Assembly (NCBI RefSeq): GCF_057098645.1 | Contig: NZ_CM169472.1 | Direction: 5' to 3' (one strand) | Length of the DNA stretch: 64,000 bases | Shown: piece after piece, positions 42,001 through 48,000 of the stretch | Layout: every line of letters starts with the position of its first letter | How positions within the stretch are numbered: the stretch's first letter is position 1 | Program-made: the position numbers

Positions 42001-45000
42001 CAAGGTTAGTCGGGTCGTTGGGGATCGCCACTGTCGCACCTTCTTTTATTTGCGCCACGGTTTTGATTTTTTTGGAATAGCCCGCCATAGGGAAGACAAA
42101 CGTATTTCCCACCGCTACCAGTTTATAACCATGCGTCTGATTATCTTGTTCAAGAAAGGGTCGATGCTGGAAGACGTTCGCATCAAGCTCGCCATTATTT
42201 GTCGCATCGTTCGGTAGCAACGAACCGCTAAATCCTACCAGTTCAACATCGAGGCCATATTTCTCTTTTGCTACCTTTTTAGCGACTTCTGCGACATCTT
42301 GTTCTGCGCCATTAATAACGCCAACTTTAATATGCTTTTCATCGCTGCTGCTCTGGTCGCAACCTGCCAGCAGAACTCCTGCCAGTAATAATGCGGCCCC
42401 CGCCCGTAGATGATGTGTTGTCAGTTTCATTTTTTTATCCTTTTATTAATGATTACCGGACTATAGCGGTAAGGTCGCTGCAGTTTAAAAAACGAAACGC
42501 TATCGATAAGAATAAAAAGGAATAAAAGTGGAATATAAAGTCTGGCACTTCTTACTGACCACGCAAACACCTTTCGTACAGCATGATGAGAGCGGCAAAA
42601 GCAAACTACACTTATGCTTCATTCGATGCACATTTGCAGAAGGTTGCCGCTATGAAGCCAACGATGCTACTCATGATTACCGTATTCCTGATTTTTCCAG
42701 CCCTTTCTCAGGCCGAGTCGCCATTCAGTTCTCTACAGTCGGCAAAAGAGAAAACCACGGTATTGCAAGATTTACGTAAAATTTGCACGCCACAGGCGTC
42801 ATTATCAGATGAAGCGTGGGAAAAGTTAATGTTGTCAGATGAAAACAATAAACAACATATACGCGAGGCCATCGTGGCGATGGAACGTAATAATCAGAGC
42901 AATTATTGGGAAGCGTTGGGTAAGGTAGAATGCCCGGATATGTAAGAACGGCAACAACCACTGACCAACGCTTCTTTACCTGATATCAGGATTTCTTCAT
43001 TTTCACCTTTGCAGTCACCAACAATGCAGTCAGCAACATCAATGTGCCGGACAACATCAGCGGCGAAGTCAGACCAATGTTATCCAACGCATAACCGCCG
43101 ATTGCCGCACCGCAGGTATTGGCAAGCTGAATAACGGCAACCTGAATAGATCCAGCCTTTTCTGCCTGATCGGCCAATGAGCGAGTGATCCACGTTGACC
43201 AACCAACGGGAATTAAAGCAAAGGTCAGCCCCCAGATAATCGCCACACCAGTAGCAACAATTTTATCGCTTCCCCACAGCGTCAGTACCAGCGCGCTCAG
43301 GGCGAGCACAAACGGTGCGCCCGCTAAGGCCAGTTTCACCGAACGTTTGAGAATAAACGACGAAAGCGATGTCCCGACAAAGCTGGCGATACCAAAACTC
43401 AGCAGCACCAGGGTTAAGCCATCAACACCGAATCCCGCCAGAGTCATATACACTGGGCGAATATAAGTGAAAAAAGCAAACTGTCCGGCAAAGGACATAA
43501 AGATGGCGATCATCCCGGCCATCACTCCCGGACGTTGTAATAAGCGGAAAGTATTTTGTTTCTGATGCGAAGGTTCACCTGGCAGCGAAGGCAGTGATTT
43601 GATAATCCAGAAAATACACAGCACACCCATCGCCGCCGCCGCATTAAAGACATTGCGCCAACCGATAAGCTCGCCTAAAAAACAGCCCAACGGCGCGGCA
43701 ATCACCAGCGCAATAGAAACCGCGCCGAAGATCACCGACAGCGCCTTCGGCACCGTACGCGGCGGCACCAGACAGGCACGACCGATTAAAAGCAAACTGA
43801 ATGAGTTAGCAAAGGAAACCAGCAAGCAGGAGAGCGTCAGCAAAACGGCAAACAAAATAACAACGTAGCGGCGGTCAGTGGCCTGAATTGTCTGGGTAAT
43901 AAACAAACTGGCAAACATTGCCACAAAGGCGGTCACGGTCACCGATTGCCCGGCAACCCCTTCCGAAATGCCTAAATCCTGGGCCATTGGCGTCAACAAA
44001 CTGACAGGCAAAAACTCAACGATAATCAGACAGGCGACGCAAAACGCCACCGAGAAAACGGCTGACCAGTTCGGTCGGGTGATGGCATCCGCGCCGCGGT
44101 TTTCGGCAATAAATTCACTCATGGTGTTACCCGTGGCATGTTTCAGGGGAAAAGCCGACCACTTTAACATTGAAATGTGTGACGCATTTAACGTTTTTGC
44201 AACTTTTACGGTGTTGTGGGAAAAGCTCGAGGCTGCTCGAAGAAATAAAAATCATAGGGCAAGGTGATATGTATTTTCGCGATTGTGTTGGGAACAAGGG
44301 ATAAAGTATTGCACTTGGTGATATACTTTAATAACAGGACCTCAACGATATACGCGTGTTTAAAACCAAATGGTTTGCAAGGGAAGCCAGGTCTCATGCA
44401 ATAACAGATGAAGAGTTGTGCCGGGCCATTTTAGAAACAGAACAAGGTAAAGCTGATGCACTTGGCGGTGGCGTTTTTAAAAAGCGCCTTCACCAAAATC
44501 GTGAGCGTGCAATTATTCTGGCGAAAGGGGTAAGCAATTGGTTTTACACGTTTTTATATGCAAAACAGGATATGTCGAACATCAATAGTCAGGAACTGGC
44601 TGGGTTTCGTGAAATTGCAAAGCATTATGCCTTCCTGACGAAAGCCCAACTAACAGCAATGATTAACACTAAAGAACTGACAGAGATCTGCTATGACTGC
44701 AAAAACTAAATTTAAAAGTCCTGCATTTGAGGCTATTCACAGCGCAGCGGCTGGATTGTCCAGCGTCAATGCTATTTCTGCTGAAACGATGCGTACTTTT
44801 GACAAAGCCTGCCTGACCAGCGTGCAAGACTTACAACCTGTTGAGATAAAAGCACTGCGGGAAAAATTAAAAGTGAGTCAGCCCGTCTTCGCTCACTATC
44901 TCAATACCAGCGTTTCAACTGTACAAAAATGGGAAAGTGGCGCTAAACGCCCCAATGGCATTTCATTAAAACTGCTCAGCATTGTGCAAAAACACGGGTT

Positions 45001-48000
45001 GGAGGTGCTGCTGTAAATAGAACGTAGATAATGCGTTCACCTACTGTCAGTTCCGATACCGGATGCGGCGTGAACGCCTTATCCACCCTACAGGTCAGGC
45101 GCGGTCTGTAGGCTGATAAGACGAAGCGGTTTTAATGCAGCCAGTGAACGCCCTCGGCAGGCTGAAAGAACGCGTTATAGCGCATCTGAAAAGCATTAAT
45201 ATCCTGCATTTCAGGTTCGGTTTCGCGCAGAAAACCCAGCGCCAGCCTGACCTGAGCATCAGTAATGGGAGCGGCAAGGCGGGCTTTTTGTAAAATCCGA
45301 TGCCATTGCAGCAGGTTCTGTTCGCTACCATCGACAATGACAATTTGCCAGATGAGCAACACCTGCGCGGCGTTTTGCAGGTGCGACTCATCCGGACGAT
45401 GCAAATAACGTAAAAATTCGTCACCGGCTGACTTTCCCATTTGATCGACCATCGACTCCACGGGTACGACATCGATATTCAGCCGATCGCTGAGACGGCG
45501 AATCGCTTTTCTGGCCCCGGATGTCAGCACCCGAAAACCAACCACAAACACTACCGCCAGCGTGGCGAGCATTATCCAGATCATGAGTTCTCCTGCGTAA
45601 TCAGAACTCATGATATCTGGAAACCCTCGCCAGTTACTAATCCACCAGAATAATCTTCAGTGCAAACAGAGCTGCGACCACCACCACACACAGGTTCAGA
45701 TCGCGCCAGCGCCCGGTGCACACTTTCATGATGCAGTACGACATAAAGCCAAGTGCAATCCCTTCGGTGATCGAGAAAGTAAAGGGCATCATCACCGTGG
45801 TAACAAACGCAGGCACCGATTCGGTAAAATCATCCCAGTTAACGCGCGCCAGACTTGAGGTCATCAACACGCCAACAAAGATTAACGCTCCGGCGGTTGC
45901 GTAAGGAGGAACCATCGCCACCAGCGGTGAGAAGAACATAACCAACAGGAACATAACGCCGACCACAACCGCAGTCAGCCCCGTGCGACCACCGACTGCC
46001 ACACCAGAAGTACTTTCAATATAGGCGGTAACAGACGAGGTGCCGATAAACGCGCCCGCCACCGAACTACGCTATCAACATATAGCGCCTTATTCATATT
46101 GGGGAATTTACCGTTACTATCTATTAAGCCAGCTTTATCAGTTACACCAATTAATGTTCCTGATGAATCAAATAGGTTGATCAGCATAAAGGAGAAAATG
46201 ATACCGGCGAGTTCAAGTGTTAACGCGCCGCTCAAATCTACTTCACCAATGACGCCGCTAATATCAGGCGGAATGGAATAGACGCCGCTAAAATGAACAT
46301 CACCGAAAAATAATCCACAGCAAGACGTCACCACAATAGAAACAAGCACCGCGGCATGAAAATGACGTGATGACAACACGGTTATAATAAAAAACCCTAA
46401 AATACCTAACAACACGCCGTGAGAACTTAAATCGCCAATCATCACCAGAGTGTCTTTATTGGCGACAATAACGCCAGTATTTTTTAATCCCATTAAGGCG
46501 ATAAATAATCCGATTCCGCTGGTGATACCAATACGTAAACTTAATGGAATGTTGGAGATCATCCAGTACCGGATACGAAATAGCGTGAGCAAAAATAGCC
46601 CAATTGCGCCCCAGAATATCGCGCCCATCCCGGTCTGCCAGGAGATACCCATCGCCCCCACGACCACGAACGCAAAGAAGGCGTTCAGCCCCATTGCCGG
46701 AGCCAGCGCCACGGGTAAGTTAGCAAATATCCCCATCGCAATACTGCCGATACCGGCAATCAAACAGGTGGTAACAAACACCACTTTCGGGTCCATTTGT
46801 GCCGCGCCGAGGATTTGCGGGTTCACAAAAACGATGTACACCATGGTTAAAAAAGTGGTCATCCCCGCAATCAATTCTGTGCGGACGGTGGTCCCATGCT
46901 GAGGTAGTTTAAATAATCGCGAAAGCGTCCCTGATTCATTACTCACGTAATCGGTATTGTCATTATTCATTTTTTTGTCCATTGGAGGAGATTTAATCCC
47001 TTGCTTTTGTAAAACAAATGACAACAACGGTTCAGTGATAATTATCACATTTCAATTGCACATTAATGGATATTCTTTAATAATCTTGCGACATTTCTTT
47101 ATGATAAATAACAATCAAATTAATAAAATCAAAACGAGAAAAATATGAATAATTCCATTAACCATAAATTTCATCACATTAGCCGGGCGGAATACCAGGA
47201 ATTGTTAGCCGTTTCCCGTGGCGACGCTGTTGCCGATTATATTATTGATAATGTCTCTATTCTCGACCTGATTAATGGCGGAGAAATTTCCGGCCCAATT
47301 GTGATTAAAGGGCGTTACATTGCCGGTGTTGGCGCAGAATACACTGATGCTCCGGCTTTGCAGCGGATTGATGCCCACGGCGCAACGGCGGTGCCAGGGT
47401 TTATTGATGCTCACCTGCATATTGAATCCAGCATGATGACGCCGGTCACCTTTGAAACCGCCACCCTGCCTCGCGGCCTGACAACTGTTATTTGCGATCC
47501 TCATGAAATCGTCAACGTGATGGGCGAAGCCGGTTTCGCCTGGTTTGCCCGCTGTGCCGAACAGGCAAGGCAAAACCAGTACTTACAGGTCAGCTCTTGC
47601 GTACCCGCTCTGGAAGGCTGCGATGTTAACGGTGCCAGTTTTACCCTTGAACAGATGCTCGCCTGGCGGGACCATCCGCAGGTTACCGGCCTTGCAGAAA
47701 TGATGGACTACCCTGGCGTAATTAGCGGGCAGAATGCGCTGCTCGATAAACTGGATGCATTTCGCCACCTGACGCTGGACGATCACTGCCCGGGTTTGGG
47801 TGGTAAAGAACTTAACGCCTATATTGCTGCGGGTATTGAAAACTGCCACGAAAGTTATCAGCTGGAAGAAGGACGCCGGAAATTACAACTCGGCATGTCG
47901 TTGATGATCCGCGAAGGGTCCGCTGCCCGCAATCTCAACGCACTGGCACCGTTGATCAACGAATTTAACAGCCCGCAATGCATGCTCTGTACTGATGACC

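Follow-up and report, generated by a model that had tools for sequence, protein, structure and literature searches.

A putative HigB2/HigA2-type toxin-antitoxin operon between nepI and yicN of Escherichia coli, probably long resident and with an altered toxin start codon in the enterohaemorrhagic lineage

Introduction

What do two small overlapping genes between nepI and yicN encode in Escherichia coli, how did they come to lie there, and do they still make a working pair? The question is raised by a stretch of 64,000 nucleotides from contig NZ_CM169472.1 (NCBI RefSeq assembly GCF_057098645.1), which is called the window here. A preliminary description of this stretch, made from the sequence alone, reported a HigB2/HigA2-like toxin-antitoxin pair: a 117-amino-acid (aa) open reading frame (ORF) with a HigB-2/RelE-like signature, followed, with a 17-bp overlap, by a 107-aa protein with a C-terminal XRE-type helix-turn-helix (HTH). 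An ORF listing returned both frames at the reported places (Table 1), with these sizes, starting with GTG and ATG, respectively, and overlapping at 44693-44709. The peptides quoted for the toxin (LGGGVFKKRL ... RAIILAKGVSNWFYTFLYAKQDMSNINSQEL) are present in the first of them. The two genes very probably form a chromosomal type II toxin-antitoxin operon of the HigB2/HigA2 kind that is old at its site and whose copy in enterohaemorrhagic E. coli (EHEC) has a weakened toxin start. The family assignment of both proteins, the toxin-first order with its overlap, the absence from K-12 and the downstream repeat element, all part of the preliminary description, are borne out below. Its suggestion of a strain-specific insertion is not, and it missed a change from ATG to ATA at the start codon of the toxin family.

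The operon would work as follows. The toxin, a protein of family PF06296 with a RelE fold, would enter the ribosomal A site and cut mRNA under translation, by analogy with Vibrio cholerae HigB2. The antitoxin would be translated from a start 17 nt inside the toxin gene. The conserved segment at the antitoxin N-terminus would wrap and block the toxin, while the C-terminal HTH would bind a palindrome that lies over an extended -10 element and repress the operon. The module appears to have lain for a long time between nepI and yicN in several genera of the Enterobacteriaceae and to have been lost from K-12-like E. coli. In the EHEC allele, the start codon has changed from ATG to ATA, which would strongly reduce toxin synthesis, while the antitoxin gene is intact.

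Protein Families of the Pair

The toxin matches the Pfam family PF06296 ('RelE') over its full length (E 6.5e-39, 133 bits, model positions 3-120 of 120). This is its sole Pfam domain at E <= 10, and the Rts1-type HigB families PF05015 and PF09907 were not matched. V. cholerae HigB-2, in a sequence 100% identical to PDB 5ja9_C, falls in the same family (E 3.3e-8, 34 bits). This protein (Q9KMA6) is a described member of PF06296, a family that is encoded toxin-first and acts by ribosome-dependent mRNA degradation (PMC11980606). A structural model of the window toxin has the RelE/ParE (BECR) fold, and a fold search gives V. cholerae HigB2 (VcHigB2) as its nearest solved structure. The active-site residues of VcHigB2 are R51, R64, Y82, and K84 (PMC5416850). 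In a MAFFT bridging alignment of 30 sequences, their counterparts in the window toxin are, in the same order, R44, R51, Y68, and K70; R44 and K70 are invariant, R51 is at least 90% conserved and position 68 is Y or F in the family. By analogy, we infer that the toxin would cleave translating mRNA in the ribosomal A site using R44, R51, Y68, and K70.

The antitoxin contains a Pfam HTH_3 domain at residues 52-96 (E 1.2e-7). Its closest solved sequence relative is V. cholerae HigA-2 (VcHigA2), with an E-value of 8e-10 that falls to 7.6e-14 when a family profile is used, and VcHigA2 is also the nearest solved structure to the antitoxin model in a fold search. Residues 45-101 of the antitoxin align to residues 37-93 of the 103-residue VcHigA2 chain. 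Because the HTH occupies the matching place in a chain of like length, the two antitoxins have the same architecture. Conservation within the family is high over the first 40 residues (KFKSPAFEAIHSAA.GL ... ETMR.FD..CL). In an AlphaFold2 (AF2) model of the toxin linked to the antitoxin, antitoxin residues 10-24 and 30-40 are helical, with a predicted local distance difference test score (pLDDT) of 88-94. The modeled helices are compatible with a toxin-binding arm at the antitoxin N-terminus.

Two other antitoxin families were considered and rejected. A weak Pfam MqsA match (E 1.2e-5) covers the HTH region only. The MqsA family (TIGR03830 / PF15731) scores 41 bits against a cut-off of 61.8; its TIGR03830 alignment takes antitoxin residues 29-101 to profile positions 47-119 only, and CxxC motifs are absent from the 107-aa sequence. 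Similarly, the NadS family (NF041265) scores 41.3 bits, again in the HTH region only, against an equivalog cut-off of 60.

Several observations weigh against so close a comparison with the V. cholerae system. Searches of the PDB with the toxin, by phmmer and with a 23-sequence family profile, gave no match even at E 10, and hhalign of the toxin against VcHigB2 gave a 23-column local match only, with a probability of 2.9%. At such distance hhalign does not back the alignment from which the catalytic residues were mapped, and the toxin matches no NCBIfam or PADLOC model. Sequence similarity between the antitoxin N-terminus and that of VcHigA2 was undetectable. The paired AF2 model contains an artificial linker and comes without a predicted aligned error or contact map, and confidence in its helices is not proof of an interface. 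Additionally, a literature search by accession, by yicN, by higBA/O157 and by the Sakai locus tags found no experiment or paper on the E. coli nepI-yicN pair. The link between the window toxin and HigB2 thus consists of Pfam co-membership, the fold search and the bridging alignment. Since the direct sequence link to solved structures fails, the window toxin and VcHigB2 are distant members of one family.

Conserved Pairing and Control of the Operon

Relatives of the toxin are encoded in 421 of the stretches matched in a scan of 100,044 species genomes, each species being represented by one genome. The best 80 of these stretches and 7 others were examined as related loci. In all 87, a homologue of the antitoxin lies immediately downstream on the same strand in an overlapping frame. 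Nearly all Enterobacterales have an overlap of 17 nt; elsewhere the frames overlap by 4-38 nt. Given the Pfam E-values of the two proteins and the recovery of the pair at every locus examined, these are not chance ORFs. The toxin family comprises 1820 clusters at 50% identity (E <= 0.001). The pair has the general marks of a type II module, as small co-oriented genes are kept together and are patchily present in differing contexts.

The region upstream of the toxin is shared as well. In 22 taxa, it takes the form TAGCAC-N3/4-GTGCTATAnTT ... ACAGGATG ... ATG. The imperfect palindrome of the window is the Escherichia version of the TAGCAC-N3/4-GTGCTA motif, which is at least 80% conserved across the 22 upstream regions, taken from different genera and genomic contexts. 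The whole block is kept both beside nepI and in unrelated neighbourhoods, for example in Dickeya. A scan of 44100-45200 for two-hexamer sigma-70 promoters and for terminators found nothing, so the extended -10 element of Table 1 is proposed from its cross-species conservation and from a reading of the sequence. The AGGA that follows it provides the only upstream pairing with the anti-Shine-Dalgarno sequence (-4.0 kcal/mol). The conserved palindrome over the extended -10 is likely an autoregulatory operator to which the antitoxin would bind. Judged from sequence, palindrome, extended -10 and Shine-Dalgarno (SD) block together are the signature expected of an autoregulated type II operon.

The Toxin Start Codon

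Homologues of the toxin begin with MR[VI]FKT, encoded by ATG-CGN-GTN at nearly all of the related loci. In the window, the first of these codons is ATA, and the annotated gene begins at the GTG two codons further on. The AGGA lies 9-10 nt before codon 44350 versus 15-16 nt before GTG 44356, and pairing is absent at 3-10 nt from the GTG. Among E. coli genomes, ATA is found in 629 and ATG in 1082, and ATA is seen together with either allele of a linked site at 44340. A further change, of TGG to TAG, places a stop at W6 in 138 of the E. coli genomes. Strain RS571 combines ATA, the W6 stop and a frameshift with an antitoxin that is annotated as intact. The NCBI Prokaryotic Genome Annotation Pipeline (PGAP) annotates a 117-aa toxin from the GTG even where an E. 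coli strain carries the upstream ATG, and the ATG/ATA polymorphism is therefore hidden. The orthologues of other genera and other gene callers give a 119-aa toxin (MRV...). The annotation of the toxin start thus looks inconsistent between PGAP and the orthologues.

The window copy is the allele of EHEC O157, O55 and O145. Its toxin carries V59 in place of G59, an EHEC-lineage substitution present in 335 E. coli genomes; among the carriers sampled, those with strain names are all O157:H7, O55:H7 or O145:H28. G59V was weighed as a possible cause of inactivation and dismissed, since residue 59 is part of a variable turn at which G, A, R, S, and D all occur in the family. It is probably neutral, to judge from this variation.

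While the mutation itself is observed, its consequence is read from the sequence: the toxin output of the ATA allele is probably strongly reduced, because ATG has become ATA and the GTG is too far from the only SD-like element. Initiation at ATA is very inefficient in E. coli. Chromosomal toxin-antitoxin genes commonly decay in this way, with a weakened toxin beside an intact antitoxin. The alternative is that the module is fully active, with toxin made at normal levels from GTG 44356 or from ATA itself, so that the change would be without effect. This we consider possible though doubtful. It would account for a toxin ORF that is otherwise intact, with all four catalytic equivalents in place, from which GTG or ATA could still yield enough toxin; it agrees with the start that PGAP annotates; and the ATA allele is kept in its 629 genomes, most of them free of further lesions. 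However, it has to be set against the spacing of the SD-like element, the poor initiation at ATA, the ATG that nearly all relatives use two codons upstream and the accumulation of a nonsense mutation and a frameshift on the ATA allele of RS571.

Toxin lesions were seen outside E. coli too. Erwinia mallotivora has two copies of the module about 13 kb apart on one contig, and in the second of these the toxin start is likewise ATA. In Winslowiella iniecta, an internal stop interrupts the toxin, and the antitoxin is intact.

Age of the Operon and Its Fate in Different Lineages

The pair is found in 1716 of 5426 complete E. coli genomes (32%), always on the chromosome and at one place per genome. 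The order nepI-toxin-antitoxin-yicN was also found in Escherichia sp. E1V33 and E. coli E69. Outside Escherichia, the same order occurs in Citrobacter koseri and C. amalonaticus and in Klebsiella oxytoca, K. michiganensis, K. grimontii, K. pneumoniae, and K. indica. In Salmonella, the pair adjoins nepI, while the Dickeya module has different neighbours. In the syntenic genomes, identity to the window copies is 75-85% for nepI, 70-84% for yicN, 64-71% for the toxin and 78-85% for the antitoxin. Since the module occupies the same site across genera and has diverged about as far as the flanking genes, these comparisons make it most likely that it has long resided between nepI and yicN by vertical descent and has been lost repeatedly, including from K-12-like lineages. 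In K-12 MG1655, nepI (b3662) adjoins yicN (b3663) across a 210-bp gap that holds neither gene, and in K-12-like genomes 41 bp stand in place of the 840-bp variable segment. These 41 bp are unrelated to the segment; a search of them for operon remnants gave chance-level matches only. A deletion scar is therefore lacking, and the direction of the event is inferred from the outgroups only.

Across the Enterobacterales, conservation is consistently higher for the antitoxin than for the toxin (about 75-85% versus 60-70% identity to the window proteins), whereas type II modules are usually reported to show the opposite. The stronger conservation of the antitoxin could mean that the module is neither selfish nor mobile and has been domesticated, with a toxin that is dispensable and decaying and an antitoxin kept as a host regulator, possibly of the divergent nepI promoter. 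The HTH protein would then have a regulatory job in the host that outlives the toxin. The operon and nepI diverge from a shared intergenic region of 228 bp, and the module has stayed beside nepI across genera, on this reading since before the split of Escherichia, Citrobacter, Klebsiella and Salmonella. Damage to the toxin recurs and would have arisen independently (ATG to ATA, the W6 stop, a frameshift, an internal stop), with the antitoxin annotated as intact in the one example checked. We nonetheless regard domestication as unlikely. In most species the toxin is still intact and its catalytic residues are conserved. Dickeya and many other taxa carry the module, under the same operator, at sites other than nepI. 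About two thirds of E. coli are without both genes, which were lost together, and no operator copy near nepI came to light, although no search aimed at one was made.

A role mainly in abortive infection against phages has also been considered. Defence roles are described in the RelE/ParE superfamily (PMC11980606), and the antitoxin matches the phage family phrog_2104 (E 9.6e-27), so a module of this type circulates in phages; the match of the toxin to PHROGs is marginal (E 0.0011). However, the toxin has no PADLOC counterpart, the antitoxin gives generic HTH matches only in that database, the two genes form an islet of their own among housekeeping genes and outside any defence island, and the toxin start codon is lost in the window allele. 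An anti-phage system is, on this evidence, distinctly improbable.

For a strain-specific, recent horizontal insertion, as suggested in the preliminary description, one can cite the absence of the pair from K-12 and about 68% of complete E. coli genomes and the presence of the family in unrelated contexts in other orders. The comparison of the nepI-yicN region speaks strongly against it. A pair found in about a third of E. coli sits at the same site and in the same orientation in Citrobacter, Klebsiella and other Escherichia, and beside nepI in Salmonella; its identities run alongside those of nepI and yicN; and no mobility genes or target duplications were found at the borders of the segment. 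A recent arrival is thus very improbable. Finally, it is hardly credible that the toxin is a ParE-like gyrase poison and not an mRNA endonuclease, as its best structural and Pfam relatives are HigB2 or RelE-type, the RelE-type basic and aromatic catalytic set is conserved and PF06296 is tabulated under ribosome-dependent mRNA degradation (PMC11980606).

Copies of the operon also turned up in an unexpected phylum. Two contigs of about 1.07 kb from the metagenome-assembled genome 'Collinsella sp.' Map_57_008 (Actinobacteria) carry the enterobacterial operon. One shares 97% identity with E. coli and includes a 100% yicN fragment, and the other has toxin and antitoxin identities to the window equal to those of Klebsiella pneumoniae. 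These contigs look like bin contamination.

The Chromosomal Setting

The features of the locus are collected in Table 1. The 961 bp that span the pair are 100% identical to E. coli O145 RM9872, whose record sets the pair between nepI and yicN. There the toxin is labelled 'type II toxin-antitoxin system RelE/ParE family toxin' and the antitoxin 'helix-turn-helix domain-containing protein'. By transfer of the annotation from this identical sequence, both neighbours lie on the minus strand, with the start of nepI at 44122 and the stop of yicN at 45132. The counterparts of the pair in O157:H7 Sakai are ECs_4597 ('hypothetical protein') and ECs_4598 ('transcriptional regulator').

Table 1. Coordinates of the operon, its control elements and the adjoining repeats, numbered from the first letter of the window.
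Feature	Position	Strand	Remarks
Variable segment, 840 bp	44217..45056		Promoter region, both genes and degenerate REP-like arm; boundaries mapped against the K-12-like empty site
Candidate operator, imperfect palindrome GTATTGCAC-TTG-GTGATATAC	44306..44326	+	Inverted repeat 44302-44314 / 44318-44330
Candidate extended -10, TG-A-TATACT	44319..44327	+	Read from sequence; overlaps right arm of the palindrome; GTGCTATAnTT conserved across taxa
Shine-Dalgarno-like AGGA	44336..44339	+	Within conserved ACAGGA(T/C) block; conserved in upstream alignment
Ancestral toxin start codon, ATA here, ATG in relatives	44350..44352	+	Two codons upstream of annotated GTG 44356
Toxin gene as annotated	44356..44709	+	WP_001301594.1; 117 aa from GTG; PF06296 / HigB-2 family, RelE-like
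Antitoxin gene	44693..45016	+	WP_000125646.1; 107 aa; conserved N-terminal segment ~6-40, C-terminal XRE-type HTH ~46-102
Degenerate REP-like arm	45024..45040		Inside variable segment; 17 nt, 88% complementary to 45070-45086
REP pair (BIME)	45057..45125		Between operon and yicN stop; also in genomes without the operon (empty-site alignment)

The repetitive extragenic palindrome (REP) or bacterial interspersed mosaic element (BIME) that had been placed directly downstream of the pair is indeed there. An exact 25-nt REP core occupies 45060-45084, with a chance expectation of 0 matches, and inverted REP arms span 45075-45123, so that the core is present in paired inverted copies within an intergenic region, as in a REP/BIME. 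Because the REP pair is present in both states of the site, it borders the variable segment and is not part of it. Rfam gives a match to naRNA4, a REP325-derived nucleoid-associated RNA, on the minus strand at 45023-45088. Its score of 32.9 bits is below the gathering score of 59.5, and it covers the degenerate REP-like arm and the first REP.

Other features of the surroundings were noted in passing. The window aligns collinearly with O157:H7 Sakai, with an identity of 99.84-99.85% (30978-40417). By transfer of the Sakai annotation, the right end of the locus of enterocyte effacement (LEE; SpLE4: escU-escR, ler, espG) falls at about 40417, which puts the toxin-antitoxin pair some 4 kb outside the LEE.

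The minus-strand nepI of the window is without 54 bp, or 18 codons in frame, at a junction at 43759-43773. These 54 bp are present in all four of the other E. coli genomes compared and in Sakai. At the junction, BLAST against Sakai gives a 15-bp overlap, GCGGCGGCACCAGAC, as expected from slippage between short direct repeats. A query across the junction matched 5401 complete genomes; in each of the 12 that were listed, the match is in two pieces spanning 115 bp, and none of those 12 has the deletion.

The minus-strand gene adeQ (yicO) is broken into overlapping ORFs at 45637-46062 and 45975-47048 (region 45637-47048). This agrees with an adeQ pseudogene marked 'frameshifted' in O145 RM9872 and with an adeP pseudogene in Sakai.

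Implications for Annotation and for Work on EHEC

The two Sakai genes ECs_4597 and ECs_4598 can now be identified as a module of the HigB2/HigA2 type, about 4 kb past the right end of the LEE in that strain. The locus indicates that a toxin-antitoxin pair can persist at one chromosomal site across several enterobacterial genera. The GTG start in RefSeq masks a polymorphism that probably decides toxin production, and the EHEC allele is likely attenuated, which is relevant to counts of 'intact' systems and to persistence and stress studies. The points of note are the age of the module at one site, an antitoxin more conserved than its toxin and the recurrent weakening of the toxin. Otherwise, this is ordinary biology of modest importance.

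Comparison With Known Toxin-Antitoxin Systems

The best counterpart is V. cholerae HigB2/HigA2 (VCA0468-0469; PDB 5JA8, 5JAA, 5J9I, 8A0X), which is also toxin-first, has a toxin of the same family, PF06296, and provides the nearest solved structures for both window proteins. The likeness extends to an antitoxin of about 105 aa with its neutralising part, putative in the window pair, N-terminal and its HTH C-terminal, and to equivalents of the R/R/Y/K active-site set in the toxin. The differences are considerable. Identity between the toxins is only about 14-20%, below detection by pairwise or profile methods, and the N-terminal segments of the antitoxins are not recognisably similar. The beta2-beta3 loop is short in the window toxin (HQNRE) and long in VcHigB2 (ASKGKGKRGGS), and the window toxin is longer at its C-terminus by about 25 residues, which include a conserved ...KEL.EIC.D tail and are lacking from VcHigB2. 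The Vibrio module lies in a superintegron, whereas the window module lies at a fixed core-genome site.

Closer to home, the passage of PMC4635514 that cites Goulard et al. 2010 describes an enterobacterial chromosomal HigB2/HigA2 of Yersinia pestis (YPO1087 region) as toxic when induced. Yersinia species carry close homologues of the window pair, with 66-69% toxin identity, and YPO1087 may be the orthologue of these homologues. RelE/RelB of E. coli K-12 differs in its toxin family, PF05016 (PMC11980606), in its antitoxin-first order and in an antitoxin that is ribbon-helix-helix and not HTH. MqsR/MqsA of E. coli is toxin-first like the window pair, and its antitoxin resembles the window antitoxin through the weak HTH matches given above. 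However, the alignment is confined to the HTH half, the window antitoxin lacks the zinc-binding CxxCG domain at its N-terminus and the window toxin has no MqsR match. HigB/HigA of Proteus vulgaris Rts1 shares the toxin-first 'hig' order, a RelE-superfamily toxin and an HTH antitoxin, but the window toxin matches neither of the families of Rts1-type HigB. The relE-1/yiaG-1 pair of adherent-invasive E. coli was ruled out as the same locus, as it sits between yiiD and fdhE. The toxin is already labelled generically in RefSeq. By its sequence relationships, the nepI-yicN pair is best placed as an uncharacterised member of the HigB2/HigA2 type, distinct from MqsRA, NadS and Rts1-HigBA.

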